A DNA stretch of 64,000 nucleotides. Source: Desulfuromonadales bacterium. GTDB lineage: Bacteria > Desulfobacterota > Desulfuromonadia > Desulfuromonadales > JACZKF01. The notes under the pieces are model-generated. The model was not told where the DNA came from, did not search any database, and saw nothing but the letters and a program-made list of their open reading frames with translations. This document shows positions 5,361-47,982 of this stretch, one piece after another. The translations under genes were made by a program, and so were the position numbers. Position 1 is the first letter of the stretch, and the number at the start of each line of letters is the position of its first letter. Location of the stretch: NCBI GenBank assembly GCA_050485365.1, contig JBJHBH010000009.1, positions 2,192 through 66,191 on the forward strand, read 5' to 3'.

Positions 5361-5424
5361 CCGTCTTTAAAGCGCCGCATCTGTCCACCCTCCCATTCCC
5401 GGGGAGGTTGATGTGGGGAGGTCC

Positions 5425-5612
5425 GATCCGGCAGGTCTTCTGGCTCGCGATTCGTCCTCGGGGCCGCCTTCCCGATCCGTCGATCAGTGGCGTCGAGTGG
5501 CCCTTCGTCCTCGCTTACAGCGGCGGGTCCGCGGGGGATTCTCACCCCTCTTCCCTATCAAGCCCTTGCGGGCGCCGATGGACTGTCCTTCAAATTTTGG
5601 GGAACCTTAGTT
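5425..5612 (-). promoter_or_regulatory. Cobalamin (AdoCbl) riboswitch
   Basis: Minus strand reads AAGGTTCC...ATAGGGAAGAGGGGTGAGAATCCCCCGCGGACCCGCCGCTGTAAGC...GCCACTG...GGGAAGGC...GAGCCAGAAGACCTGCC, containing the canonical B12-box elements. It lies 5' of btuB. Confidence 0.93.
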
Positions 5613-11192: not shown

Positions 11193-11282
11193 ACACCTCT
11201 CCGACAAGAGCAAACCTGGAGGAATCCGGGGACGCAAAGCCACGGGTCCGAGACGGACAGCCGAGCCGCCGAAGAGAGGGGA
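11193..11282 (+). promoter_or_regulatory. GEMM-I cyclic dinucleotide riboswitch (A20 variant)
   Basis: CGACAAGAGCAAACC-hairpin-GGGACGCAAAGCCACGGGTCC...GACAGCCGAGCCGCCGAA, closed by CCTCTC/GAGAGG pairing; matches the c-di-GMP-I consensus elements. Confidence 0.88.
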
Positions 11283-11367: not shown

Positions 11368-12228
11368 ATGGAATCTCAAACCTGCCGACCCGCTCACCCA
11401 CGGCGCCTCGGCCGCCGACCACCCCCCTTCTCTTCGGCACCGGTCCGTTCGCCCAAAGCCCTGCTGCTGGTTTCCACTTCGTTCGTCTTGATCTTCCTGG
11501 CCGTCGCCCAGACGATGCTCATTCTCGCCGCGCTGGGCGGCCTTGCCCGACAGGCGCAGATGGCGCTGCAGGCGGCCCTGCTCGTCGCCTTTCTCTGGCC
11601 CCCCGCTTACTTCCTGCTCCTTCGCCCCCTGCATCTTCAAAAAGAGCGCCTCAAGGAAGCAGAGAAAGAAGCGCGCGCCCTCGCGTTTTACGACGCGCTC
11701 ACCTCGCTGCCCAACCGCCTGCTCCTTCGCGAGCGCGCAGAGCGCGCCTTCGCCGAAGCCCGGCGACAGGGGACGTCGGTCGCCGTAATCTTCATCGACC
11801 TGGACGACTTCAAGCAGATCAACGACGCCTTCGGCCACGCCGTCGGAGACGCCTACCTCAAAGCCGTCGCCGACACCCTCACGCAATCGGTCCGGCAAAG
11901 CGATACCGTCGCGCGCATCGGCGGCGACGAATTCGTGTGGGTCGGCCTGGTTCGGGATTACGACGAGGCTGAGACCATCGCCCGCAAGATCCTGCACAGC
12001 CTGACGCGACCTATCGAGTTCGGCGGCCGGGCGCTCAAAATCGGCGCCAGCATCGGCATCGCCGTCCACCCCCGCGACGGCGACGACCTCGACGCCCTCA
12101 TCCAGGCGGCCGACGGCGCCATGTACGCCGCCAAGCGCGGCGGAAAGAACGGATTCCACTCCTCCGTATCGCGCCACTACAACAACTCGACCGCGCGCGA
12201 ATCGGCCTATTCGTATTTTCGCGATTGA
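11368..12228 (+). CDS. Membrane-anchored diguanylate cyclase (GGDEF)
   Basis: Two N-terminal TM segments; YDALTSLPNR, IDLDDFKQINDAFGHAVGD, RxxD I-site (RQSD) and an intact GGDEF. Confidence 0.92.
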   Translation: MESQTCRPAHPRRLGRRPPPFSSAPVRSPKALLLVSTSFVLIFLAVAQTMLILAALGGLARQAQMALQAALLVAFLWPPAYFLLLRPLHLQKERLKEAEKEARALAFYDALTSLPNRLLLRERAERAFAEARRQGTSVAVIFIDLDDFKQINDAFGHAVGDAYLKAVADTLTQSVRQSDTVARIGGDEFVWVGLVRDYDEAETIARKILHSLTRPIEFGGRALKIGASIGIAVHPRDGDDLDALIQAADGAMYAAKRGGKNGFHSSVSRHYNNSTARESAYSYFRD

Positions 12229-20954: not shown

Positions 20955-21443
20955 TTGAAGAATCATGTCTGGCGCCCCCTCTACGTCGTTCTCGGCCTCG
21001 TAGCGGTCATTTTGACCTTCCGCTTTTTCTACGTGCCGAGCGACTTCGGCAGCGGGAAGTACGGCTTCATGTACAGTTATCATCGGGCGTCCAACGTCGA
21101 TGAATGGAAAGCGATCGAGCCGAAGTACCGCGATACGGGTCGCCAGAAACTGCACGAGCACTGCTTGGATTGCCATGGCGGCACCATCGGTATCCGCAGC
21201 GAGGACATGCACGGAATGATCTCCTGCGAGAACTGCCACGGTCCGGCTCTCGATCACCCCAACGAGCCGCAGAATCTCCTGATCGACCGCAGCCGCGATC
21301 TGTGCCTGCGCTGTCACACCCACCTCCCCTACACGACGAGCGAGCGCAAGCGCATCCCCGGGATCGACCCCCATGAGCACAACCCCGGCATGTCGTGCGT
21401 CGACTGCCACGATCCGCACAATCCGAGACTGGAGGACATGTAA
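20955..21443 (+). CDS. cbcS: Membrane-anchored tetraheme cytochrome c (CbcS-like)
   Basis: N-terminal TM and four CxxCH motifs (CLDCH, CENCH, CLRCH, CVDCH); first gene of a cytochrome c/FeS/NrfD operon like Geobacter Cbc4. Confidence 0.75.
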   Translation: MKNHVWRPLYVVLGLVAVILTFRFFYVPSDFGSGKYGFMYSYHRASNVDEWKAIEPKYRDTGRQKLHEHCLDCHGGTIGIRSEDMHGMISCENCHGPALDHPNEPQNLLIDRSRDLCLRCHTHLPYTTSERKRIPGIDPHEHNPGMSCVDCHDPHNPRLEDM

Positions 21444-22217
21444 ATGAAGAGGCGAGACTTCCTCAAGAATTCGATAATGGTGATTGCAGGCGCCTCGGTC
21501 CCCCTCTCGGCCTTGCAGTTGGTCGACCCGAAGGAGGTCCTGGCGCAGAACCCCGACATTCACTGGGCCTTTCTGGTCGACACCCACACCTGCGTCGGAT
21601 GCGGCTTCTGCGTCAAGGCATGCAAGATCGAAAACGATGTTCCTCTCGAGGCCAACGTCCACCGCACTTGGGTCGAGCGCTACGTCTACACCAAGGACGA
21701 CCGCCGCTACATCGACAGCCCCAATGGGGCCGAACACGGCTACACCGACCCTCGCATCGATCAGGGGATCGCCGGGAAGGTCGACATCGATCCGGACAAC
21801 GTCGGAAAGGCTTTTTTCGTCCCCAAGCTCTGCAACCAGTGCCTCACCCCCCCCTGCACCCAGGTCTGCCCTGTCGGCGCCACCTACAAGACGGACGACG
21901 GAGTCGTCCTCGTCGACAAGACGTGGTGCATCGGATGCGGCTACTGCGTCATGGCGTGCCCATACGCCGCGCGCTTCTTCCATCCGGTTACCCACGTCCC
22001 CGACAAGTGCACCTTCTGCTACCACCGGATCCACCGGGGTCTGGAGCCGGCATGCGTCAACGCCTGCCCCTTCGAGGCCCGCAGGCTCTGCAATATCCGC
22101 GACGTCAACGATCCGGTGACCAGGATCATCATGACCGAGCGCGTCGGAATCCTCAAAGATGAATTCGGTACCAGACCCCAGGCCTTCTATATCGGTCTTG
22201 CCACGGAGGTGCGTTGA
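21444..22217 (+). CDS. cbcT: Tat-exported 4Fe-4S protein (NrfC/DsrO/CbcT-like)
   Basis: MKRRDFLK Tat motif; CVGCGFCVKAC, CNQCLTPPCTQVCP, CIGCGYCVMACP and KCTFCYHR...PACVNACP. Confidence 0.8.
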   Translation: MKRRDFLKNSIMVIAGASVPLSALQLVDPKEVLAQNPDIHWAFLVDTHTCVGCGFCVKACKIENDVPLEANVHRTWVERYVYTKDDRRYIDSPNGAEHGYTDPRIDQGIAGKVDIDPDNVGKAFFVPKLCNQCLTPPCTQVCPVGATYKTDDGVVLVDKTWCIGCGYCVMACPYAARFFHPVTHVPDKCTFCYHRIHRGLEPACVNACPFEARRLCNIRDVNDPVTRIIMTERVGILKDEFGTRPQAFYIGLATEVR

Positions 22218-23500
22218 AGATGATGGAGCTGGCACAAGCTGTTCACGGTGAAGCCTGGACCCTCAAGGAGTTCTTCGTTCTGCCCAACGAATACGTCTAC
22301 TGGTCGATCCAGATCGTCATGTACCCCTTCATGACGGGGCTCGTTGCGGGGGCCTTCGTCCTCTCCTCGCTCTATCACGTCTTCGGCATCAAACGCCTGA
22401 AGGAGATCGCGCGCTTCTCGCTCGTCTTCTCCCTGGCCCTGCTGCCGGTGGCGATGATGCCGCTATTGCTTCATCTTACGCAACCGTTTCGCGGCTTTCA
22501 CGTCATGATGACGCCGCACTTCACTTCGGCGATCGCCGCCTTCGGCATCGTCTTCATGACCTACGGCTCCATCGTCGCCAGCGAGCTATGGTTCGTCTAC
22601 CGCAAGCACTTCGTCCTTACGGTGATGGAGCTGAAGGAAAAACGCGACCGCACCTCCCTCGAGAACCTGCGCCTCAACTTCAACAAGATCCTCACCCTCG
22701 GCGCCATGGACATCAGCGAGGAGGCTCTCGAAAAAGACCACAAGGCGACCAAGTACCTGGCGGCCGTCGGGATTCCCGTCGCCTGTTTTCTGCACGGATA
22801 CGCCGGGTTCATCTTCGGATCGGTCAAGGCCAATGCCCTGTGGATGACCCCCCTGATGCCGGTCATCTTCATCATGTCCGCCGTCGTCTCGGGGATCGCC
22901 CTGTGCATCCTGTGCTATGTGGTGACGCAGGAGATCCGCAAGTTCATGGCCAAACGAAAACTATCACGCTGGGGGAAGGACCCCAAAGCCCCGAGCATCG
23001 AGCAGCTTCAAGGAGCGGAGCAGGGGGGAGTTGCGATCGCCTCCAACTATCTTCTCTACTTCATGATCGGCGCCGTCACCCTGGAGATCCTCGACATCAT
23101 TTTCCGCGGCTACACTCAGGTAAAATCGTGGGACATCCTGGGCACTGTCATCATGGAGCGCAAGTTCGTCTCGCTCTGGATCATGCAGTTCGGCATCGGC
23201 AACATCCTCCCCTTCATCATGATGGTCATGCCGGGGCGCACCGTGAGAAGGACCGTCATCGCCTGCATCCTCGTCCTCTTCGGCGTCTTCATGATGCGCT
23301 GGAACATCGTCATCGGCGGACAGGCCTTCTCCCTGAGCTTCGCCGGTTTCATGCACTATCAGCTTCCGATCATTCCGCAAAACTGGGAGACCTTCCGGGA
23401 AGGGCTTACCGGCGCCCTGCTTGTCGCGACCACCCCCTTCATCCTTTTCTGGGGGATCAACAAGTTCATGCCGGTCTTTGTCGACGAAAAACGAGTCTGA
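22214..23500 (+). CDS. cbcU: NrfD/PsrC-family quinol-interacting membrane subunit (CbcU-like)
   Basis: YWSIQIVMYPFMTGLVAGAF, LLLHLTQPFR, HGYAGFIF, LWMTPLMP and MRWNIVIGGQ motifs. Confidence 0.8.
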   Translation: MKMMELAQAVHGEAWTLKEFFVLPNEYVYWSIQIVMYPFMTGLVAGAFVLSSLYHVFGIKRLKEIARFSLVFSLALLPVAMMPLLLHLTQPFRGFHVMMTPHFTSAIAAFGIVFMTYGSIVASELWFVYRKHFVLTVMELKEKRDRTSLENLRLNFNKILTLGAMDISEEALEKDHKATKYLAAVGIPVACFLHGYAGFIFGSVKANALWMTPLMPVIFIMSAVVSGIALCILCYVVTQEIRKFMAKRKLSRWGKDPKAPSIEQLQGAEQGGVAIASNYLLYFMIGAVTLEILDIIFRGYTQVKSWDILGTVIMERKFVSLWIMQFGIGNILPFIMMVMPGRTVRRTVIACILVLFGVFMMRWNIVIGGQAFSLSFAGFMHYQLPIIPQNWETFREGLTGALLVATTPFILFWGINKFMPVFVDEKRV

Positions 23501-23607: not shown

Positions 23608-23883
23608 TCAGGGCCTGCTCGCAACGCCGGCTTTTCTGACGGCTCTGACCATGTGAATGCCGCTTCGGTTCCGGAAGATGCGCATCAGCATCACCCCGAG
23701 GATGGAGAGGAAGAAGCCGACGCAGAGGACGACGTAGCCGAGGCTCCTCCCTTCGCCGATGCCGGCCAGCTCCTTTCCGCCGAGTAGCCCTATCATGGCG
23801 ATGGCGACGAAGGTGACGATACCCCCCAACACATAGACGACCAACGCCGATACGCCCCAGATCATATCTTTTTGCAGTTTCAT
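23608..23883 (-). CDS. Small two-TM membrane protein downstream of cbcL
   Basis: Start MKLQKDMIWG at 23883 with RBS GGAGG; two hydrophobic helices. Confidence 0.6.
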   Translation of the reverse strand: MKLQKDMIWGVSALVVYVLGGIVTFVAIAMIGLLGGKELAGIGEGRSLGYVVLCVGFFLSILGVMLMRIFRNRSGIHMVRAVRKAGVASRP

Positions 23884-23942
23884 CTTTACCTCCGCAGGTG
23901 AAGGGTGGGGGGAGCGCGAGGCTCCCCCCGTTTTTTCCGCCA

Positions 23943-25946: not shown

Positions 25947-26609
25947 TCAGCTACGCAACAATACTTCCAATGCCTTGTCCTTGTCCGGGTTGTTGAATCG
26001 AAAAACCATCTCCTTGAGGTAGAGCTGAAATTCGTTGCGAAAACTCCCCCGATACCGCCTCAGGTGCTTGCGGGAGAATTCCCAGAATTCCGAAGCGACG
26101 CCTCGATCGCTTTCGGTGCTGTGGGGGAGGTGACGCTGAAGGATGCGGCTGAGAAAGTTCTCCTTCATCCCCCATTGCCCCCCCAGAACGAGGTACGAAC
26201 AACACGCCGGCGGAAGGGCCGCTGCGGAGCCGTCGGGAAAGGCGACCCACACGGTCCCTTCGCGAACGCCGATGCCGCACAGAAGATCGACGATCTTCTC
26301 CGGCCGCCCCTCATTCCCCTGCGACGCGACAGGGGGGCAGTGAACGAGGTCGTTCTGGGCGGCCATCTTCTCCCGGAGCTCGCGGTAGATGCGCTGCGCC
26401 GTCTTGCGATTGATCCCGGCCAGATCGGCGGCCTGGTAGGCCGAACCGAGATTCCAGAAAAGCTGGGCGACGAACTCGCGCTTCTCCTGCGGCAGTCGCC
26501 CCTGGCGCGGATGCGGGGTGAACTTCACGCGGCAGTGACGGCACAGACGACGGCCATCCGCCAAAAGATAGGAATCTGAACTGGAGCAGGCCGGACAATG
26601 ATCGTTCAT
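25947..26609 (-). mobile_element. IS1595-family transposase-derived protein lacking the DDE catalytic residues
   Basis: Zn ribbon CPAC...CRHC, HTH AYQAADLAGINRKTAQRIY and C-terminal FWEFSRKHLRRYRG...FQLYLKEMVFRFN match IS1595 transposases; the DExY, TD and NxIE motifs are absent; no terminal inverted repeats seen. Confidence 0.65.
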
Positions 26610-26885
26610 GCGTTGCCATCCTCCCATAGGTCCTTTTTTCTGGCCTGTTCGAAAATTCCACAAAAAAATTTGGCCAAAGTTTGATTGACCTCCTTTGCCA
26701 CTTCGACCTGTGCGGCCGCACGCTCGGGCGGCCGCTACTCTCTTTGAGGGCACAGGACCAGGGAATAGGCCATTAGATGACTCTTATGTGACACTGTCAA
26801 CCTTTTCCGCTTCATCAGCCCACCTTCTCTCCTGTTTCGTTGATGCACTTTCCGAGCCCATCGGCGAGGGTTCCGCCCGTCAACT

Positions 26886-28295
26886 TCAGGCCAACTCGTG
26901 CCGTTTCATCCAGCGCCACAGCGTGGTGCGATCGACCCCCAGAACGCCCGCCACCTCGGTGCGGTTTCCCCCGTGCCGGTTAAGCAGGTCGCTGAGCGCA
27001 TCGGCCGAGATCTCCTTGCGCCGGCTGCGTGCCGCCGGATGCGTCGGCGCGCTGCGCGGCACCAGGGCCGCCGGGAGGTGCTCCAGATCCATCTCGTCGC
27101 TGCGGCAGAAGATGACGGTCTGCTCCATGATGTTGAGCAACTCGCGCACGTTGCCGGGGTAGTCGTAATCGAGCAGGACCTGCAGCGCCCCGGAGGAGAT
27201 CCCCCGGATCTGCTTGGCGTAGGTGCGGTTGAGGCGCTCTAGGAAAAGATCGATGAGCAGCGGAACGTCTTCGGGGCGCTGGCGAAGAGGCGGAATATGC
27301 AGCGCCAGAACGTTGATCCGGAAGAAGAGGTCGCGCCGAAACGTCCCCGCGCTCACTCTGGCGCTCAGATCGCAGTTGGTGGCGGCGATGAAGCGCACAT
27401 CGATCTTCTGAGGCGCATCGCTCCCCAAGGGGAGATATTCCTGGGTCTCGATGACGCGCATCAGCTTCACCTGCTGCGACAAGGGGAGCTCGCCGATCTC
27501 GTCGAGGAAGAGCGTCCCCCCCCTGGCCAGCTCGAGCCGCCCGGGGCGATCGGCGCCGTCGCCGTCGGGGCCTCGGCGGGTGCCGAAGAGCTCGGCTTCC
27601 AGCTGCTTCTCCGGCACGGCACCGCAGTTCACGGTGACGAAGGGGCCGGCGCTGCGGTGACTGAGTTCATGAATCGCCTTGACGACCAACTCCTTGCCGG
27701 TTCCGCTTTCCCCAGAGACGAGCACCGTGGCATCGCTTCGCGCCACATCGGGCAGCGCATCGAAGAGCCGCCGCATCAGCCGGTTGCAGCTGACGAGATT
27801 GCGGAAGGTGTACGGCGCCGCGTGTTGCGGCGCCTGCTCGCAGCGCGTGCGAAACGCCTCCACGACGCCGATGGCGTGCCCCGCGGCGTCCTTCAGCACC
27901 GAGGCGTTGAGCGAGATGGGGACGCGCTTGTTGTCCTTGTTGCGGATCTCGACATCCCGGTTGACGATGGGGCGGCCGGACCTGCGGGCTTCACGCACCG
28001 GGCAGCAGCTCGAACAGAGGGTGGAGCGCATCACCTCGTGGCACGGACGTCCGAGGACCTCCTCGCGGGTGAAGCCCGTGATCTGCTCGGCGGCGCTGTT
28101 GAAGGAGGTGATGCGCATCTGCTCGTCGACGGTGAAGACGGCGTCGGCCACGCAGTTGAGGACGGCGCCGGTGAGCGCTGACGAGGCGACGGAGAGATGG
28201 GCCGACGCCCTGCCGGTGCGTGCGCTTTGCGAATTCCACGAACTGTGATGTCTGACTTGTGCATCACTCATGGCACACCTCTCGATTTCGATCAC
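26886..28295 (-). CDS. PAS-AAA+-Fis enhancer-binding-type regulator with degenerate GAFTGA loop
   Basis: PAS (FNSAAEQITGF), Walker A GESGTGKE, Walker B LFLDE, FIAATN, PGNVREL, C-terminal HTH LGVDRTTLWRWM; GAFTGA replaced by GPDGDGA. Start probably MSDAQ. Confidence 0.9.
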   Translation of the reverse strand: MIEIERCAMSDAQVRHHSSWNSQSARTGRASAHLSVASSALTGAVLNCVADAVFTVDEQMRITSFNSAAEQITGFTREEVLGRPCHEVMRSTLCSSCCPVREARRSGRPIVNRDVEIRNKDNKRVPISLNASVLKDAAGHAIGVVEAFRTRCEQAPQHAAPYTFRNLVSCNRLMRRLFDALPDVARSDATVLVSGESGTGKELVVKAIHELSHRSAGPFVTVNCGAVPEKQLEAELFGTRRGPDGDGADRPGRLELARGGTLFLDEIGELPLSQQVKLMRVIETQEYLPLGSDAPQKIDVRFIAATNCDLSARVSAGTFRRDLFFRINVLALHIPPLRQRPEDVPLLIDLFLERLNRTYAKQIRGISSGALQVLLDYDYPGNVRELLNIMEQTVIFCRSDEMDLEHLPAALVPRSAPTHPAARSRRKEISADALSDLLNRHGGNRTEVAGVLGVDRTTLWRWMKRHELA

Positions 28296-28488: not shown

Positions 28489-29646
28489 ATGTCGCTTTCA
28501 GATCTCTGGGCGTGGTGCAAAAGGCACCTTCTGCTGGTTACGTTTCTTGCCGTCGGCCTCATTTTCGTCTTCGCCGTCGTCAACGTGCAGATCCTTCACA
28601 TGACCTCGGAACCGGAGTTCTGCGCCATGTGCCACCCGAACCAGGGGTACGGTCCGCTCGCCGAGGTCGACTCGTGGGCCCACTCGACCCACGCGGCCGC
28701 CGGCGTCTCGTGTCTCGACTGCCACGGCCGCCCCGGTCTGGTCGGCTACATGAAGGCCAAGATCGGCGGCCTCTACGACGTCTACATGCAGTTCGCCCTT
28801 TCGCCGGAGGAAAAACTCGCCATCCTGGCGAACCCCTCCCCCGACCTCGTTCCGGAAGACCACTGCCTGTACTGTCACTCCGATGAGCAGAATCTCGCCA
28901 CCCGTCAGGCGACCCGCTTCATGGACATCGTGAACATGCGCATGCTCGACGGCGTCCAGAATCCGGAATTTCGCGAGCGCAAGGGGATTCCCGACATCCT
29001 GGCGGGCCCGACCCGCGAAAACTCGCGCTTCGACCACGTCTTCCACATGGACGCCTTCAACCTGTCGTGCAACGACTGTCACTTCGGCGTCGTGCACAAC
29101 CCCCAGAGCAAGACCGACCTGATGAACATGTGCATCGCCTGCCATCAGGGCTACGAAGGCTCGTCGGCTCCCCTTCTGGCCGATTGCGCCGGTTGCCACT
29201 CGGTGCAGAACGACATGTACCTGGGCCAGGGCGCCCGCAGCGTGCCGGAAGAGGAAGGACTCAAGTCCATGTTCGGCATCAGCTGCGAGATGTGCCACTC
29301 CTCGGTCTTCCAGGGCATCTACCGCCCCTCGGCGAGCACCTGCATCGATTGCCATGACGCCGGCTACAACGAGATTCTGGTCATGTGGCAGCAAGATACC
29401 AAAGAGCAGGTTGCCAAACTCGACCGCCTGCGCCTGACCGTCGAAGACGCCCTGCGCGACGGCGATGCCCGCGGCCGGGACAACACGGCGCGCTGGGAAA
29501 CTTTCCAGAAAGCGGTCTTCAATCTCAAGCTCGTGAAGAAGGACGGTGCCAAAGGGGCGCACAACGCCGACTATGCCCACTCCATCCTCACTTCGGTCGA
29601 AGAGGATTTCAATGCCATCCTCACCGACATTCGCATCACCTGGTAA
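28489..29646 (+). CDS. NapC/NirT-type membrane-anchored octaheme cytochrome c
   Basis: N-terminal TM, TSEPEFCAMCH; eight CxxCH motifs (CAMCH, CLDCH, CLYCH, CNDCH, CIACH, CAGCH, CEMCH, CIDCH); C-terminal helical KDGAKGAHN segment. Confidence 0.88.
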   Translation: MSLSDLWAWCKRHLLLVTFLAVGLIFVFAVVNVQILHMTSEPEFCAMCHPNQGYGPLAEVDSWAHSTHAAAGVSCLDCHGRPGLVGYMKAKIGGLYDVYMQFALSPEEKLAILANPSPDLVPEDHCLYCHSDEQNLATRQATRFMDIVNMRMLDGVQNPEFRERKGIPDILAGPTRENSRFDHVFHMDAFNLSCNDCHFGVVHNPQSKTDLMNMCIACHQGYEGSSAPLLADCAGCHSVQNDMYLGQGARSVPEEEGLKSMFGISCEMCHSSVFQGIYRPSASTCIDCHDAGYNEILVMWQQDTKEQVAKLDRLRLTVEDALRDGDARGRDNTARWETFQKAVFNLKLVKKDGAKGAHNADYAHSILTSVEEDFNAILTDIRITW

Positions 29647-29667: not shown

Positions 29668-29698
29668 AAAAGGCGCCCTTGATGGGCGCCTTTTTTTT
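29668..29698. terminator. Bidirectional intrinsic terminator between the cytochrome gene and the peptide array
   Basis: AAAAGGCGCCC-TTGAT-GGGCGCCTTTTTTTT. Confidence 0.85.
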
Positions 29699-29741: not shown

Positions 29742-29876
29742 TCAACCGACCGTGGAGGCGAGAAAGGCAAGGGCAGGGGGGGAGATGACGACGGCCGCGA
29801 TTGCGGACATGGCCCCCGCGAGGACCAGCACTGCGATGACGAAACTCGCTTTCATTCTCCCAGGGATGGTTTCCAT
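29742..29876 (-). CDS. Small hydrophobic peptide, array copy 4 (44 aa)
   Basis: METIPGRMKASFVIAVLVLAGAMSAIAAVVISPPALAFLASTVG*; RBS GGAGGAG; paralog of copies 1-3. Confidence 0.75.
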   Translation of the reverse strand: METIPGRMKASFVIAVLVLAGAMSAIAAVVISPPALAFLASTVG

Positions 29877-29950
29877 CTTCTCCTCCGCTCCTTTATCCTT
29901 CCTTACGTCCATTGGTCATTTCGCCGAAAGCCGATGTCTTTCGCGCCGGA

Positions 29951-30094
29951 TCAGCCGATCCTCGATGCGAGGTAGGCCAGAGCCGGGTAGGAGATCAGCA
30001 CCGCCGAGACCGCCGATACGACGCCGGTCACAACCAGCACACTCGTCAGATAACTCGCCTTCACCTTTTCACGGAAGCTGACCACGTTTTCCAT
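29951..30094 (-). CDS. Small hydrophobic peptide, array copy 3 (47 aa)
   Basis: MENVVSFREKVKASYLTSVLVVTGVVSAVSAVLISYPALAYLASRIG*; RBS GGAGG. Confidence 0.8.
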   Translation of the reverse strand: MENVVSFREKVKASYLTSVLVVTGVVSAVSAVLISYPALAYLASRIG

Positions 30095-30156
30095 AATTCC
30101 CTCCATCGCGCTGTCCGGATCACCGGAGTTATTCTGGATGACGCCTGCCTGGATTC

Positions 30157-30300
30157 TCAGCCGATCCTCGATGCGAGGTAGGCCAAGGCCGGGTAGGAGA
30201 TCAGCACCGCCGAGACCGCCGACACGATACCGGTCGCAACCAGCACACTCGCCAGATAACTCGCCTTCACCTTTTCACGGAAGCTGACCACGTTTTCCAT
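30157..30300 (-). CDS. Small hydrophobic peptide, array copy 2 (47 aa)
   Basis: MENVVSFREKVKASYLASVLVATGIVSAVSAVLISYPALAYLASRIG*; RBS GGAGG; it is the tail of track ORF 30157..30675. Confidence 0.8.
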   Translation of the reverse strand: MENVVSFREKVKASYLASVLVATGIVSAVSAVLISYPALAYLASRIG

Positions 30301-30362
30301 AATTTCCTCCATTGCGCTGTCCGGATCACCGGAGCTATTGGGGATGACGTCCGCCGGGAGTC

Positions 30363-30509
30363 TCAGCCGACCTTGGAAGCGAGGAAGGCCAGGGCGGGAT
30401 AGGCGATCAGGACCGCCGTCACCATCGACATGAACCCCGTCACGACCAGCAAACCAACCAGATAACCCGATTTCGCCTTTTGTCCGATTTTGTTGATGGT
30501 TGTTTCCAT
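30363..30509 (-). CDS. Small hydrophobic peptide, array copy 1 (48 aa)
   Basis: METTINKIGQKAKSGYLVGLLVVTGFMSMVTAVLIAYPALAFLASKVG*; RBS AAGGAGGT. Confidence 0.8.
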   Translation of the reverse strand: METTINKIGQKAKSGYLVGLLVVTGFMSMVTAVLIAYPALAFLASKVG

Positions 30510-30612
30510 GGCCTACCTCCTTTGATTTGGGTCCCCCGTGGGGACCGCTGCCGGATCTATGAGGTGATGGAGTCTGTCTCCATCGATCGTCCTTGCTCTT
30601 GTCTTCGTATAT

Positions 30613-30628
30613 AGCAACGGCCGTGCCA
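30613..30628 (-). promoter_or_regulatory. sigma54 (-24/-12) promoter driving the peptide array
   Basis: Minus strand TGGCACGGCCGTTGCT is an exact match to the TGGCACG-N4-TTGCW consensus, about 100 bp upstream of the copy 1 start. Confidence 0.85.
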
Positions 30629-30779
30629 CATTTAAAACATGTTGGTTTACGGCAACTTACAGTGTCGTCTCGCACAAAGCGGCCGCTCGCAACGAAAAAT
30701 GTTCAATTCCCGGCGGGTCGAAATGGGAGCCTTCGGGCGTCTGGGAGCTCTCCTTCCGGAGCGGGACTCAATGCCGGGG

Positions 30780-30808
30780 TTTGCATCGCCTCACTCAGGC
30801 GTTGCAAA
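30780..30808. promoter_or_regulatory. Palindrome, candidate enhancer (UAS)
   Basis: TTTGCATCGCCT-CACTC-AGGCGTTGCAAA (one mismatch), about 150-180 bp upstream of the sigma54 promoter. Confidence 0.5.
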
Positions 30809-31218
30809 GGGCCGTTTTATGCCGTGGGTTGCGATCGAGGCGGGAGTGTTGCATCGTGGCGTTACGCAGAGGGCCACGCCCCGAAGGTGTTCAGAATCCG
30901 GCATCCCGGGCAAAAGACCCGTCGGCACGCCTTTGCACAAATGCTTGAATTCTCGTCATTATCTATTGTTCAAAATCCGACGCCAGCGATTCGGCGACCA
31001 TTTCAGAGCAACTGTTGCGCAGTGTTGCATGCAGCACGTCCCGTGCATCGAGCGGCGCAGCCCAAGCCATGACAACGTGGCCAAAGACAGGAGGGGTCCG
31101 AAACGGGGGGACGGCGGGGCGGGGTAAATCTTCGCTCCCTTTCAGCGGATCCCTTGCACCCCGGCGACCTTGTGGTTTAATAAGTAGTCAGTGGATACTT
31201 GAACCCAAGGAGGGCAAG

Positions 31219-31563
31219 ATGGCAAACGACAACAGAACGACTGCAGGCGCCCTTATGCTTCTGGCCGGCGGAATCATCGGCGCGGGTCTGGCTCTTATGT
31301 ACGCTCCGCAGTCCGGCGTGAAGACCCGCCGCCAGCTCTCGCGCTGCGCCCGCAGGGCGCGCAACGACGCGGAGGCGATGATCCACGAAGCGGCCGAAAC
31401 CGTTTCCGACGCGGTGGAGGATCTGGGCGAAAAGACCGCCGATTTGATCGATCGCGGAGGCGATGTGGCCGAAGACTGGCGCCATTACCTGCTGAACTCC
31501 ATCGAGCGGGGGCAAAAAGAGCTCGAGCGGCAGCGCAAAAAGCTCAATCAGCTCTGGGGATAA
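31219..31563 (+). CDS. YtxH-domain protein
   Basis: GGIIGAGLALMYAPQSGVKTRRQL motif followed by an amphipathic helix; RBS AGGAGG. Confidence 0.85.
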   Translation: MANDNRTTAGALMLLAGGIIGAGLALMYAPQSGVKTRRQLSRCARRARNDAEAMIHEAAETVSDAVEDLGEKTADLIDRGGDVAEDWRHYLLNSIERGQKELERQRKKLNQLWG

Positions 31564-31589
31564 CCCCAAGCGGCAGACGTGACGCGTTC

Positions 31590-31635
31590 GACGACGAGGC
31601 CGGCACCCTAAAAGGTGCCGGCCTCGTCGTTTTTT
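31590..31635. terminator. Intrinsic terminator
   Basis: GACGACGAGGCCGGCACC...GGTGCCGGCCTCGTCGTTTTTT. Confidence 0.8.
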
Positions 31636-31640
31636 CCCCC

Positions 31641-32360
31641 TCAGCCGAGCCTGACGGTGGCGACGATCGGCAGATGATCGGAAGCGATCATCGTCGCCCG
31701 GCTCTTGACGACGCCGATCTCGACCAGACTCTCCTTGGGCTGCACCAGGATGCGATCGAGGGAGAGCAGGGGGAAGAAGGCCGGAAAGGTGCGCGGCGCC
31801 GGGGTGCGCCCGAAGTGCCGATGGAGCCAGCGGGCGGGGCGCCCCAGCAGAAACCATTCGTTCAGATCCCCCAGGACGATGACGGAGGCCTCGAGGGGCG
31901 ACAGCTCGATGATCTTGAGCAGCTTCTGCACCTGATAGCGGCGCTCGGCGGGCTGCAGCCCGAGGTGGGTGACGATGACCCGACAGGGCCCCGCCGAGGT
32001 TTCGAGCTCGACGTCGAGGGCGCCCCGCGATTCCCGGTGGGGGTACGACAGGTCGTGCCTGCGTACGTCGAGGATGCGGCAGCGGGTCAGCAGCGCGTTG
32101 CCGTAGTAGCCGTCGTGGCGCTCGAGGGTCGGACCCCCGATGGCCCGCATTCCCGTGGCACCGCATAAAAAGTCGATCTGCATGCTCGTTCGGTCCTCGC
32201 CGTAGGGGGCGTTCACCTCCTGCAGCCCCACGATGTCGGCCTGCAGATCGCGGATGATCTCTGCGATGCGCGCTACGTCGAGCCGCCCGTCCATCCCCAC
32301 ACCCGAGTGGATGTTGTAGGAGGCGACCCGGCAGCATCCGCTCTCATTGTCCTTCGACAT
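31641..32360 (-). CDS. Endonuclease/exonuclease/phosphatase family protein
   Basis: VASYNIH, DIVGLQEV, GNALLT, THLGL, LGDLNEW, LDRI and ASDHLP motifs. Confidence 0.92.
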   Translation of the reverse strand: MSKDNESGCCRVASYNIHSGVGMDGRLDVARIAEIIRDLQADIVGLQEVNAPYGEDRTSMQIDFLCGATGMRAIGGPTLERHDGYYGNALLTRCRILDVRRHDLSYPHRESRGALDVELETSAGPCRVIVTHLGLQPAERRYQVQKLLKIIELSPLEASVIVLGDLNEWFLLGRPARWLHRHFGRTPAPRTFPAFFPLLSLDRILVQPKESLVEIGVVKSRATMIASDHLPIVATVRLG

Positions 32361-32369
32361 CCCCTCGTC

Positions 32370-34490
32370 TCACTCTCCCCCCTTTTTGTTCGCGATCCAG
32401 CGCTTCACGTACCACACGCCCCCCCCGATGGCCGCCAGAACGAGGAGCAGCGTGACGATGTTCCCGGCGCTCGGGTCGGTGAGCGCCTTTCTGAGGCGGC
32501 TCTCGAAAACGGTGATGGCCAGGATCCCCGGCCCCATGCCGAGCATCGTCCCCAGAAAGTAATCCCTGAAGCGGATATGGCTGGCGCCGGCCACCAGATT
32601 CACGATGGTGAAGGGCGCGATGGGCAACAGGCGCACCAGCAGTACGGCGATCACCCCCCTTTTCGCCAACTGCCGGCTCAAGGTGTTGAGGCGCGAGCCG
32701 GCCAACCGACGCACCGTGTCGCGGCCGAGAAAGTGCCCCCCGGCGTAGGAGAGGGCGGCGCTGGCCAGCACCCCGGCGAGGGCGTAGAAAAAGCTCTGCA
32801 GGGGAGCGAAGCTCAGGGCGGTGGCGAAGATCAGAAGCGTCACCGGGAACAGGACGATCCCCCCGGCGACGAAGAGGGCCGTGACGAAGAGCGGCGCCCA
32901 GGGGCTTCCGCGCACCGCCGCCCCCCACGTCCGCAGCAGGTCGAGATCGATCCACTCGCCAAGGGGTGTCCAGCGCCAGGCCGCCGAAAGGGCGAGCATT
33001 GCCGCGAGGACCCCGCCCAGGATCAGCCAGCGCCCCTTCCCTTCGCTCTTCTCGGGCGACTCCCGGGCGATGATCTCCTCGACGAACTCCTCGAAGGGCA
33101 TGGGGCGCTCCGGGTCGAGTACATGCGCCTCGGGGACGATCTGATCGAACCACTCGTCCTCTTTCGGATCGAGCGGAGCCAGAGAGCGCCCGGGGCCGCG
33201 CAGCGATTCGATGAGCTCGATCAGCGAACCCCCCTCGGCCGAGCGCCGATGCAACTCGTCAGAGGCTACCCCAAGGTGCTCGGCAAGCAGTCGGCAACGA
33301 AAGGCCCGGATGGCCCGGCGCGTCGCGTCCCCGTCCGCCTCGATCGCCAGATCGCACTCGGTGTCGAGCCCCATCGAGCGGTTGCTGAGGTTGGCCGATC
33401 CGATGCGCACCAGCCGATCGTCGACGATCATCACCTTGCTGTGCAGATTGACCGAGCGCTCTTCCTCCCCTTCGAGGCGAGGATAGTAGATGCGCAGCTT
33501 TCCGAAGCGGTCGGCCCCGATCAACTGCCGCATGGCGCGGGCGCGCAGCACTCCCATAGTCGACTCCTCGAGCCACCCCGAGCACTCCTTGGGGAAGACG
33601 AGCACGATCTCGGGACCCGCTTCCTCGCCGAGCCGCGCGCCGAGGGCGTCGACGACGACGGCGGAGGTGAAGAACTGGTTTTCGATATAGATGAACGAGC
33701 GGGCCGCGGCTATAGCGTCGAGATAGAGGGTCTGGACCTCGCGCACCTCGGCCTGCCCGTTGAAGGGAGGGGCGGTGCGCACGATCGCCACCGGCGCCTC
33801 CACGACGTCGGGCGCGAGCGCTGGGGGCCACGGATCGTTCGCGCCGGAGGCCGGGGGGGTGAGGACTTCACCTGTGCGGCGCTTCCAGCGGTTTCGGGCC
33901 AGATCGCCCAGCGCCGCTGCGGCGTCGCCGTCGACCATGATCTGGATGTCGTGAAAAGGGGAGTAGGTGCGCCCATAGTCGCTGCGCCGCGGATCGTCGG
34001 CGAGGTGCGCCGGGGTGTCCCACCGGCATCCAGCCAGGTCGAATCCGCCGACGAAGGCGACCTTGTCGTCGACGACGACGATCTTCTGGTGGTGCGCCCC
34101 CCCGACGGGGTGGCGATCGTCGAGGCGAAAGTGAAGGCGCCGGTGCGTGTTCCAGGCGAACTTGAAGAAGGGAAGGGGCTCACGCTCCAGGGCGTAGAGC
34201 ATGACGAAGTCCCAGTCGAGCACATAGATGTGCAGCTCCGGGCGACGCGCCGCCAGGCGGTTCAGAAACTCCCGCAGCGCAGGGAAGGGGTAGTCCTTGC
34301 GCTCGCTGCGGCGCAGCCGGATGCGGCTGTCGATATCCCACCCGAGAATGAAGATGGAGCGGGTCGCCCGCCCCATCGCCGAAGCGACGGCCGAAAAGTA
34401 GGCCTCGCCGTCGACAAGGAAGGCGGCCCGCCGGCAGGGGGCGATGCGCCAGCAGTTGCGCCCCGGCTGGAGTATCTGTTTATCCTCCAT
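32370..34490 (-). CDS. Phospholipase D family protein fused to a VTT/SNARE-associated membrane domain
   Basis: Start MEDKQILQPGRNCW at 34490; two HKD motifs (HHQKIVVVDD, LHSKVMIVDD); C-terminal VTT segment (RLLPIAPFTIVNLVAG). Confidence 0.88.
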   Translation of the reverse strand: MEDKQILQPGRNCWRIAPCRRAAFLVDGEAYFSAVASAMGRATRSIFILGWDIDSRIRLRRSERKDYPFPALREFLNRLAARRPELHIYVLDWDFVMLYALEREPLPFFKFAWNTHRRLHFRLDDRHPVGGAHHQKIVVVDDKVAFVGGFDLAGCRWDTPAHLADDPRRSDYGRTYSPFHDIQIMVDGDAAAALGDLARNRWKRRTGEVLTPPASGANDPWPPALAPDVVEAPVAIVRTAPPFNGQAEVREVQTLYLDAIAAARSFIYIENQFFTSAVVVDALGARLGEEAGPEIVLVFPKECSGWLEESTMGVLRARAMRQLIGADRFGKLRIYYPRLEGEEERSVNLHSKVMIVDDRLVRIGSANLSNRSMGLDTECDLAIEADGDATRRAIRAFRCRLLAEHLGVASDELHRRSAEGGSLIELIESLRGPGRSLAPLDPKEDEWFDQIVPEAHVLDPERPMPFEEFVEEIIARESPEKSEGKGRWLILGGVLAAMLALSAAWRWTPLGEWIDLDLLRTWGAAVRGSPWAPLFVTALFVAGGIVLFPVTLLIFATALSFAPLQSFFYALAGVLASAALSYAGGHFLGRDTVRRLAGSRLNTLSRQLAKRGVIAVLLVRLLPIAPFTIVNLVAGASHIRFRDYFLGTMLGMGPGILAITVFESRLRKALTDPSAGNIVTLLLVLAAIGGGVWYVKRWIANKKGGE

Positions 34491-34686
34491 GGCGCTCCCG
34501 ATCCTCGAGCTTTGTCCCGGAAGAAGGCATCGAATTCCGGCGCTGCGGCCCCCCTCGCCGGGGGGGCACGCTTTCCAGTATAGCAAGTCGCTTCGAAGCG
34601 GCATCGCGCCGCCGATCCGTGGCGCTGCGCCCCCGGCGGGTGTATCTTCACTAGAGGAGCCACCACATTTTCCGAGGAGGCCGCCC

Positions 34687-35280
34687 GTGTTCGAAGCGCC
34701 GTTTCTCACCTCACCGTTCTTCTCCCTCGTCGTCATCCCCTTTCTCATCTTCATCTCGCGCATCGTCGATGTGACCTTCGGCACGCTGCGCATCATCTTC
34801 GTCTCGCGGGGGCTGCCGTATCTGGCGGCGCTGGTGGGATTTTTCGAAGTGCTGATCTGGATCGTCGCCATCGGTCAGGTGATGCAGAACCTCACCAACT
34901 GGGTCACCTACGTCGCCTACGCCTTCGGCTTCTCGGCGGGCAACTTCGTCGGGGTCGTCATCGAGCGCAGGCTCGCCATGGGCAGCCTCATCGTTCGGAT
35001 CATCACCCGCAGGGAGGCCGATGAGCTGGTAAAATTTCTATGGCGCTCGGGGTACGGCGTCACGAGCGTCGATGCGCGCGGAGAGACCGGCCCGGTCAAG
35101 GTCATCTTCACCATCGTCAAGCGCAAGAAGCTCCCCGAGGTGATCGAGATCATCAAGCGCTACAACCCCAACGCCTTCTATTCCATCGAGGACGTGCGCT
35201 TCGTGAACGAGACTCTGTGGGCCGCTCCCATGGGGAGGCGCGCCCTCTTTTCCCTGCGTTCGTTGCGAAAACGCAAGTGA
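34687..35280 (+). CDS. DUF2179/UPF0316 membrane protein
   Basis: GTG start after GAGGAGG; RIVDVTFGTLRI, GFFEVLIW, YAFGFSAGNFVG and YNPNAFYSIEDVR motifs. Confidence 0.85.
   Translation: MFEAPFLTSPFFSLVVIPFLIFISRIVDVTFGTLRIIFVSRGLPYLAALVGFFEVLIWIVAIGQVMQNLTNWVTYVAYAFGFSAGNFVGVVIERRLAMGSLIVRIITRREADELVKFLWRSGYGVTSVDARGETGPVKVIFTIVKRKKLPEVIEIIKRYNPNAFYSIEDVRFVNETLWAAPMGRRALFSLRSLRKRK

Positions 35281-46530: not shown

Positions 46531-47982
<1,452 letters not shown>

Follow-up and report, generated by a model that had tools for sequence, protein, structure and literature searches.

Small single-pass membrane proteins, some of them accessory to respiratory complexes, are already known in bacteria; such proteins are routinely overlooked in genome annotation and often control large complexes. 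CydX of cytochrome bd, CcoQ of the cbb3 oxidase and PetG, PetL, PetM and PetN of the b6f complex have 30–60 amino acids (aa) and a single transmembrane (TM) helix. MgrB, AcrZ, MgtS and YohP (about 30–50 aa) are likewise single-pass, are often stress-induced and bind a larger membrane protein. Here we describe a tandem array of four small genes on the minus strand of a 64,000-nucleotide (nt) stretch of a Desulfuromonadales genome (contig JBJHBH010000009.1; hereafter the window), the predicted products of which resemble both groups in size and in having one membrane-spanning helix. Like the genes of the first group, the array lies among genes for quinol-oxidising complexes, and the conserved residues of its peptides suit helix–helix packing. 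However, the peptides show no sequence similarity to those subunits, they are tandem paralogues encoded in a separate and separately regulated operon, and many members of their family lie away from respiratory genes. MgrB, AcrZ, MgtS and YohP differ from the array in being single-copy and not sigma-54-dependent, and the only resemblance to any of them is a sub-threshold one between the first peptide and YohP.

A parallel in gene order is provided by the cbcBA operon of Geobacter sulfurreducens, in which a sigma-54 promoter precedes two small ORFs for hypothetical proteins (GSU0597 and GSU3489), a gene for a regulator (GSU0596) and then cbcB and cbcA for a bc-type cytochrome of the inner membrane, and for which the activator is BccR (10.1101/2021.04.15.440034). 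In the literature searched, GSU0597 and GSU3489 are described only as ‘hypothetical protein’. One of two peptide arrays in a related Desulfuromonadales metagenome-assembled genome (MAG; GCA_029289095.1, locus L001) echoes this arrangement, with a promoter, two peptide genes, an activator, a 221-aa protein and a CbcL-like cytochrome. The two differ in their regulators: GSU0596 is a receiver protein and BccR a receiver-type activator, whereas the activator beside the array has a PAS domain. In the window, unlike in cbcBA, the array and the activator gene have a convergent cytochrome gene between them.

Four short genes encode conserved peptides

The array occupies positions 29742–30509 of the minus strand, with its stop codons 206, 206 and 209 base pairs (bp) apart. 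Reading of the minus strand and of the list of open reading frames (ORFs) reveals a GGAGG-type Shine–Dalgarno site 5′ of every copy. A first-pass annotation, made from the sequence alone, had described four minus-strand short ORFs (sORFs) of 44–48 aa with this spacing and with GGAGG-type ribosome-binding sites (RBSs), and all four are present where it placed them:

30363–30509, minus strand: c1, 48 aa, type 1 (METTINKIGQKAKSGYLVGLLVVTGFMSMVTAVLIAYPALAFLASKVG), with AGGAGG about 7 nt 5′ of the ATG
30157–30300, minus strand: c2, 47 aa, type 2
29951–30094, minus strand: c3, 47 aa, type 2
29742–29876, minus strand: c4, 44 aa, type 3, the most divergent copy

For c4 we chose the start codon at 29876 (ATG), which lies 7 nt 3′ of a GGAGG and agrees with where its orthologue begins. 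In this copy a proline replaces the Y/W that precedes PALA, and a threonine replaces the K/R near the C terminus. Copies c2 and c3 are 94% identical (non-synonymous divergence (dN) 0.03, synonymous divergence (dS) 0.11). Our recount gave three non-synonymous and four synonymous changes between them, in line with the three substitutions and at least four synonymous changes that the first-pass annotation had reported, and c3 would be either a recent duplicate or a gene-conversion partner of c2. No further peptide copies were found elsewhere in the 64-kb window, and no Rfam RNA family matched in the array region. Longer ORFs run across the array, two of them on the minus strand (172 aa and 56 aa) and several on the plus strand; these were rejected as read-through artefacts of high GC content.

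To assess selection, we calculated dN/dS by the Nei–Gojobori method between the copies and their orthologues in L001 and in two JGI metagenome contigs (L006 and L007). Across orthologous copy pairs, dN/dS is 0.06–0.26 at synonymous divergences of 0.5–1.7, and third codon positions hold 15–25 differences per pair. Copy c1 is 88% and 81% identical to the L001 copies A1 and B1 (dN/dS of 0.09 and 0.22, respectively), and the orthologues of c2, which are L001 B2 and B3, are 77% and 72% identical to it (dN/dS of about 0.2). The nearest relative of c4 is L001 A2, at 55% identity; dN/dS is 0.24 for this pair and purifying selection therefore persists on c4 as well. The reading frame is also conserved in relatives, a check that had been named at the outset, as searches recovered hundreds of homologous sORFs of the same length. 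These substitution patterns, with changes mostly at third positions, bear out the earlier suggestion of selection on the peptide and show the four sORFs to be real, conserved coding genes under purifying selection.

An apparently undescribed family of tandem paralogues

The first-pass annotation had not recognised the family, and neither did the databases. Scans of the peptides against Pfam, NCBIfam and PHROGs returned only sub-threshold matches of hydrophobic composition, and the best hit of a profile search against PDB sequences (E = 0.15, to an ATP synthase c fragment) was likewise one of hydrophobic composition only. The resemblance of c1 to YohP (PF25659 / NF011345) was discarded: it scores 16.9 bits against a cutoff of 27 in Pfam and 13.5 against 58 in NCBIfam, it covers 13–15 hydrophobic residues, and c2–c4 have no such match. 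A full-text literature search for WPALAYL, YPALAFL and YPALAYL found no paper. The family, its alpha/beta or multi-type tandem arrays, the sigma-54/PAS-activator module and the placement of arrays in an island of ImcH-, CbcL- and Cbc-type genes thus appear to be undescribed.

A profile built from the four peptides matched just 14 proteins among 5.8 billion, and a narrow-motif scan of GTDB representative genomes matched one MAG. An exhaustive HMMER search yielded 56 representative clusters at 50% identity, and a broader profile 419 clusters at 90% identity, the latter stemming mainly from sediment metagenomes; two scans of IMG/VR found no viral homologues. Family members are nearly all 40–70 aa long and carry the name ‘hypothetical protein’ or, in a few cases, evident misannotations. 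The named hosts are Desulfuromonas sp. TF, a Desulfuromonadales MAG and a ‘Deltaproteobacteria’ MAG. The family consensus is MKTxxxxxxxVKSSYxVxVxAVLGVFAFISAVLIAWPALAYLGSKLF(N), and the subclade of the window has TG at positions 24–25, S28 and the C-terminal motif (S/A)YPALA(F/Y)LAS(K/R)(V/I)G.

Gene order in these loci shows that tandem paralogy is a trait of the family. Exactly two adjacent copies occur in 75 of the 101 sequences examined, which comprise 100 loci and the window; a few of the loci are duplicate fetches of one contig, and many of the ‘single’-copy loci end at contig edges. The sediment clade has two distinct conserved paralogues, alpha (MKTQSRFMDTVKSSYLVLVIA...IGSKLFN) and beta (MKTAANIVNNVKASYTVAIMG...LGAKMFN), and alpha precedes beta in all 40 of the pairs inspected, from 66 that qualified. 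The window array has the order type 1, type 2, type 2, type 3, and L001 has two arrays, A (types 1 and 3) and B (types 1, 2 and 2). Copy c1 groups with A1 and B1, c2 and c3 group with B2 and B3, and c4 groups with A2. The two type-2 copies are closer to each other within a genome than between the window and L001, which points either to recent duplication or to gene conversion. The array had at first been taken for copy-number amplification. Instead, its copies fall into three paralogue types (c1; c2 and c3; c4), every one of which has an orthologue of its own in L001, and fixed pairs are found elsewhere in the family. The long retention of distinct types suggests that the paralogues act together or have specialised.

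A predicted sigma-54 module restricted to the window subclade

The elements around the array that bear on its expression are as follows:

30613–30628, minus strand: sigma-54 −24/−12 promoter, TGGCACGGCCGTTGCT, the sole exact match to TGGCAC-N5-TTGCW in the 64 kb
30510–30612, minus strand: 5′ untranslated region (UTR) of about 90–100 nt; its GC-rich hairpin (GGUCCCC-ACG-GGGGACC) ends about 10 nt short of the Shine–Dalgarno site
29668–29694, bidirectional: intrinsic terminator with an 11-bp stem (ΔG = −24.6 kcal/mol, z = −3.0) and flanks of A8 and U4
30700–31018, minus strand: conserved upstream region with candidate activator sites
30700–30712, minus strand: candidate repeat CGGGAATTGAACA, invariant in the alignment of the window with both L001 arrays
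30888–30900, minus strand: candidate repeat CGGATTCTGAACA, invariant in the same alignment
30967–30979, minus strand: candidate repeat CGGATTTTGAACA, invariant in the same alignment
31008–31018, minus strand: palindrome GCAACAGTTGC, invariant in the same alignment
26886–28295, minus strand: sigma-54 enhancer-binding protein with PAS, AAA+ and Fis-type helix–turn–helix (HTH) domains, as assigned with Pfam
27786–28271, minus strand: N-terminal PAS domain of this protein

The perfect −24/−12 promoter and the bidirectional terminator of the first-pass annotation were thus both located, and their positions support a single transcription unit. Flanked by A8 on one side and U4 on the other, the terminator could stop both the array and the convergent cytochrome gene; an equivalent hairpin lies 3′ of L001 array B. 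An exact −24/−12 element is found 110–119 nt 5′ of the first ATG in the window, in both L001 arrays, in L007 and in L011, and L006 has an element with one mismatch (TGGCACA) 101 nt upstream. A second sigma-54-like site in the window (position 47355, one mismatch) lies inside cysS, the gene for Cys-tRNA synthetase (GWHIEC), and was attributed to chance.

Conservation extends well beyond the promoter, as about 480 bp 5′ of it can be aligned between the window and both L001 arrays. The three candidate repeats are CGGAWTYTGAACA-like sequences that, with the palindrome, lie 75–400 bp upstream, and, within the window, the exact palindrome and both exact matches to the motif are confined to this region. 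We infer that the repeats and the palindrome are candidate binding sites for an activator. The PAS-AAA+-HTH protein is, on synteny, likely to be the cognate one: its gene adjoins the array wherever the flank suffices (the window, L001 and L007/L008), except in L006. In L001 the activator gene directly follows array A, whereas in the window and in L007/L008 a convergent cytochrome gene lies between the activator and the array. Three cysteines of the PAS domain (C77, C86 and C90) are invariant across the window, L001 and L007, in the motif C(H/Y)E..RS..C...CPVREA, and may form a redox- or metal-sensing site.

This mode of control does not extend to the whole family. The sigma-54 element is absent in the distant members L012, L013 and L015, which, together with L101, carry TTGACA/TATAAT-like promoters instead, and no orthologue of the activator was detected (E ≤ 1e-10) in L006 or in any locus with a sigma-70-type promoter. 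The sigma-54 promoter, the upstream blocks of about 480 bp and the PAS-activator gene co-occur only in the window subclade. Because distant members have sigma-70-like promoters, sigma-54 control with the PAS activator is, on this comparison, a derived state restricted to that subclade. The earlier claim of sigma-54 control would apply to the window array and its close relatives and not to the rest of the family.

A hairpin before the Shine–Dalgarno site is present in every locus of the sigma-54 clade, with a sequence that differs from locus to locus. In the predicted fold of the window leader (30510–30600, minus strand), CACCUC about 50 nt upstream pairs with the GGAGG of c1 (z = −1.9, which is not statistically strong), and the conserved leader hairpin of L001 is CCUCC...GGAGG. 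Such pairing may constitute an anti-Shine–Dalgarno element for translational control. Hairpins between the cistrons (TCCGG-N4-CCGGA) were indistinguishable from shuffled sequence (z = −0.5 to −1.8).

Predicted membrane topology

Conservation was measured as column entropies over 65 sequences, and AlphaFold was run with the same alignment. The N terminus is variable and net positive, with K13 and Y16 near-invariant, and residues 17–23, the first half of the hydrophobic stretch, vary. Residues 24–46 are the most conserved, with G25, A32 and P38–A41 invariant and Y or W at position 37. Low-entropy positions 24/25, 27/28 and 31/32 follow a helical periodicity, and the small residues at 25, 28, 32 and 36 fall on one face of the helix. 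A distance of 21 positions, which corresponds to the span of a bilayer, separates the aromatic residues 16 and 37. AlphaFold predicts a helix from 2 to 35, a break, and a second helix from 37 to 47, with a mean predicted local distance difference test (pLDDT) score of 80. Given this conservation pattern, the aromatic spacing and the helix–kink–helix model, the peptides are probably uncleaved, N-in/C-out single-pass membrane proteins with their conserved half in the periplasmic leaflet and at its surface.

Cytochrome genes recur beside the arrays

The gene map of the window was drawn from L001 genes mapped onto it and from family scans:

20955–23500, plus strand: small multihaem cytochrome, NrfC-like 4Fe-4S protein and NrfD-like membrane subunit, a Cbc-type quinone-interacting complex by family scans
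23608–23886, minus strand: 91-aa protein with two TM helices
23943–25937, minus strand: CbcL-like cytochrome with nine CXXCH motifs and a C-terminal FdnI/HydC-like membrane domain
25947–26612, minus strand: 221-aa Zn-ribbon protein, between the activator and the CbcL-like gene
28489–29646, plus strand: NapC/NirT octahaem cytochrome c (NapC-385) with one N-terminal TM helix, convergent with the array
31219–31563, plus strand: YtxH
31641–32360, minus strand: Exo_endo_phos gene
32370–34871, minus strand: PLD–VTT (DedA) fusion

A 386-aa ORF at 31177–32337 is spurious, as YtxH and the Exo_endo_phos gene are the real genes there. Across the family, cytochrome-island genes are frequent but not universal neighbours of the peptide genes. 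A close orthologue of NapC-385 (84–90% identity) is immediately convergent with the array in four loci (L001, L007, L008 and L009); other loci have a more divergent homologue at a distance of about 5 kb, and the gene cluster covers 11 loci altogether. CbcL-like orthologues were found in eight distinct peptide loci; these and the NapC-385 orthologues recur within 5–7 kb of peptide genes. NrfD orthologues adjoin peptide genes in about 30 loci, and an operon for NrfD, an Fe-S protein and a cytochrome is convergent downstream in 21 of 52. Divergently upstream, a 486-aa ImcH-like cytochrome is present in 15 of the 36 loci with enough flank; its representative has three N-terminal TM helices, one CX3CH motif and five CX2CH motifs. 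The architectures of CbcL and ImcH, as described in PMC6295460, match those of the CbcL-like cytochrome of the window and of the 486-aa cytochromes. The island context is shared by the clade of the window, a clade with three copies (L019) and two sub-lineages within the sediment clade.

Between the window (29742–31563) and L001 (L001:6649–17745) the region is rearranged. The window has the single merged array 1, 2, 2, 3, whereas in L001 array A is followed by the activator and array B by NapC-385. An ImcH-like cytochrome of 487 aa and a MerR gene lie upstream of array A in L001; counterparts of these two genes were not detected in the window.

A possible role alongside quinol-oxidising complexes

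The explanation that we favour, tentatively and at somewhat less than an even chance, is that the peptides form a single-pass inner-membrane family, switched by the PAS/sigma-54 module and accessory to quinol-oxidising cytochrome complexes. From sequence and synteny, the operon would remain silent until the neighbouring PAS-domain activator fires. The activator would probably sense a redox or metal signal through its three conserved cysteines and would bind the upstream repeats, and a single transcript running from the −24/−12 promoter to the shared terminator would then supply four strongly translated cistrons. Each product would have a short basic cytoplasmic N terminus, a TM helix of about 21 residues between Y16 and Y/W37 and, after a proline kink, a helix of 11 residues, PALA(F/Y)LAS(K/R)xG, lying at the periplasmic membrane surface. 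A ridge of small residues (G25, S/A28, A32 and A/S36) would probably be the surface by which the peptides pack against one another or against the helices of partners, and the paralogue types would probably form mixed oligomers. The products would most likely act as accessory or modulating partners of the NapC/NirT octahaem, CbcL-like, NrfD-type and ImcH-like complexes. This hypothetical role with the neighbouring cytochrome complexes is the leading model and the weakest step of the explanation. One of two models in the first-pass annotation had proposed a pilin/coat-like or single-TM subunit that polymerises or modulates the multihaem cytochrome complexes nearby. A single-TM subunit related to these complexes is the part of that proposal that fits best, although the cytochrome link holds in only about 40% of loci.

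Several observations weigh against such a role. No cytochrome gene shares a transcript with the array, which forms a transcription unit of its own, and about 60% of loci are not beside these cytochrome genes. Other contexts include rubrerythrin/PilZ/HD genes (11 loci), OmpA with acyl-CoA genes, PagL/AsmA and an RND pump. In Desulfuromonas sp. TF (L101:8656–9162, KI421421.1), a single 53-aa copy (WP_155890808.1) with a sigma-70-like promoter (TTGCAG-N17-TATAAT) directly follows a PF04020 (holin-4/YvlD-like) gene, in a region of housekeeping genes (ispE, prs, rplY and pth). Most of the metagenome loci come from one clade, so that shared synteny may reflect ancestry, and one homologue lies on a phage-like contig. 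A search of PDB sequences, among them the small subunits of solved respiratory complexes, turned up no related chain. Finally, the topology, the absence of cleavage, the oligomerisation and the pairing of activator with promoter are all predictions from sequence.

A more specific version of the favoured model, which we consider decidedly doubtful, holds that the peptides are inducible hetero-oligomeric subunits at the quinol sites of ImcH-, CbcL-, NapC- and NrfD-type oxidases. They would switch or tune the active oxidase with redox potential, under the control of the cysteine-rich PAS sensor via sigma-54. If true, this would add a post-translational layer to the redox-potential-dependent branching of the Geobacter-type respiratory chain. 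ImcH, CbcL and Cbc-type quinol oxidases set metal and electrode respiration by Geobacter-like bacteria at differing potentials, and the locus bears on an active question, namely how such bacteria switch between inner-membrane electron-transfer routes. Should the peptides prove to be partners of these oxidases, they would supply a part that models of how electron transfer branches with potential have so far lacked; otherwise they would still be a regulated and abundant constituent of the membranes of metal- and sulfur-cycling bacteria that are dominant in the environment. The system is approachable, given its stable tandem organisation and the presence in one lineage of a complete module of sensor–activator, enhancer region, promoter and terminator, and the cultured carrier Desulfuromonas sp. 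TF is convenient for genetics.

Alternative explanations

The strongest rival, unlikely in our judgement but to be taken seriously, is that the peptides are abundant, general membrane-homeostasis or envelope-stress proteins that stabilise or tune the inner membrane (its lipid packing, proton leak or protein insertion) whatever cytochrome complex is present, the cytochrome synteny being inherited. The varied genomic contexts of the family would be expected in that case. The same applies to the YtxH gene and the PLD–DedA(VTT) fusion upstream of the array in the window and L001, to PagL, AsmA and OmpA in L013, L015 and L017, to the YvlD/holin-4-like gene in Desulfuromonas sp. TF and to the copy on a phage-like contig. 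Sigma-54 regulons are, moreover, often envelope-related, according to PMC4551910. However, nearly all of 22 consecutive residues are conserved, which argues for a specific partner rather than a bulk effect, and the position between ImcH-like and NrfD operons recurs across deep branches of the family. Family scans also found no PspA- or PspF-type components of the phage-shock-protein (Psp) response: the activator has a PAS domain and scores 213 bits against a PspF cutoff of 444, and there is no PspA gene nearby.

Very improbable, in our view, is the other model of the first-pass annotation, in which the peptide is a Sec signal cut after P-A-L-A to free a conserved signalling peptide of 7–9 residues (FLASKVG, YLASRIG or FLASTVG). 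The peptides do resemble the exported signalling pro-peptides of the Phr and enterococcal type: their N terminus is basic and is followed by a hydrophobic stretch, and they have an AxA motif and a conserved, short tail at the C terminus. There is a helix-breaking proline at −4, the residues at −3 and −1 are small, and the putative signal peptidase I (SPase I) motif A39-L40-A41 is invariant in the 65 sequences, with A or S at −1 in remote members, barring a few exceptions. Yet a typical signal peptide has a hydrophobic region (h-region) of 7–15 residues and a total length of about 25, whereas here the hydrophobic run covers residues 17–36 or so (about 20–22 residues, the length of a TM helix) and cleavage would follow residue 41, giving a 41-residue signal. 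Nor is the would-be mature part the more conserved one. Residues 24–46 as a whole have the lowest entropy, with WPALAY and the C-terminal half of the helix the most conserved, and G25, A32 and most of 24–37 match the tail in conservation, a pattern seldom seen in signal peptides. The helix predicted by AlphaFold runs through the supposed cleavage site, the tail is hydrophobic, and no peptidase, exporter, receptor, receptor kinase or Rap-like gene is among the recurrent neighbours; the host, furthermore, is Gram-negative.

We rate just as low the proposal that the peptides permeabilise membranes, as type I toxins, holins or two-peptide bacteriocins, and on induction would depolarise the membrane of the producer or of a competitor. 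Small size, hydrophobicity and tandem repetition are also features of the ldr and ibs type I toxins, and pairs with a small-xxx-small motif are found among class IIb two-peptide bacteriocins as they are here; one homologue lies on a phage-like contig and a holin-family gene adjoins the copy in Desulfuromonas sp. TF. But the strong Shine–Dalgarno sites, the dedicated activator and the presence of up to five copies per genome suggest that the genes are meant to be highly expressed. These loci showed no conserved antisense RNA and no gene for immunity, nor did they show a double-glycine leader or an ABC exporter with a C39 peptidase, and IMG/VR held no further homologues. Weak antisense promoter-like sites do overlie the 5′ ends of c2 and c3, but they match at no more than 9 of 12 positions and are limited to these near-identical copies. 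We rejected these sigma-70-like sites, together with a short plus-strand ‘terminator’ in c2/c3, as by-products of the ATG/RBS sequence.

Hardly credible is the pilin or coat reading of the first-pass annotation, in which the peptides are filament subunits that polymerise outside the membrane: they are small, hydrophobic, multi-copy and sigma-54-controlled, as is pilA of Geobacter in this last respect, but no copy has a prepilin-peptidase motif (G|(F/M)xxxE, with E5) or a Flp motif (G|xxxxEY), no pilin family of Pfam or NCBIfam matches, the sole pilin-related match in PDB has E = 7, no prepilin peptidase, ATPase or secretin is encoded in the window neighbourhood or in the recurrent neighbour clusters, and the roughly 11 residues that follow the helix are too few for a head domain.

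Other members and neighbouring features

The homologue on the phage-like contig, P0012 (43 aa; ...ISYPALAFLASKLH), is found at L003:10001–10132 and also at L004:585–716. This contig has a GC content of 41% and carries genes for PhoH, an RNA ligase, a gyrase/topo IV-like protein, GIY-YIG and Phage_VG64; a strong RBS and an AT-rich promoter region of its own precede the peptide gene. Members of one subclade (P0014, P0034, P0039, P0045, P0049 and P0064) have an N-terminal extension of 20–40 residues rich in His and Trp (for example HWLQEHHW, SHWFHEHH or GSHWFHEYHW), which may be a cytoplasmic tail that binds metal or haem. Certain of the proteins with this extension are misnamed ‘phosphosulfolactate phosphohydrolase-like’ in JGI. 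P0022 (64 aa) resembles an alpha/beta chimaera, with an alpha N terminus followed by a complete beta, and may have originated by recombination or mis-assembly between tandem copies. P0028 (267 aa) contains five repeats of FSHVKDGYVVDVMIITGSHS that match the N-terminal half of the profile only, and is probably an unrelated repeat protein.

The 221-aa protein of the window has an N-terminal Zn-ribbon (CPAC...CRHC) and weakly matches IS1595 transposases in their C-terminal part; a protein with 68% identity occupies the same position in L001. An encapsulin (Linocin_M18) and hemerythrin pair lies 3–7 kb from peptide genes in two loci (L013:4174–5546 and L015:13710–15088), the contexts of which otherwise differ. 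Elsewhere in the window are two ordinary-looking riboswitches: a cobalamin riboswitch (5413–5596, minus strand) 5′ of a TonB-dependent receptor gene (3306–5252, minus strand), and a c-di-GMP-I riboswitch (11199–11273, plus strand) directly 5′ of a gene for a GGDEF diguanylate cyclase (11368–12228).

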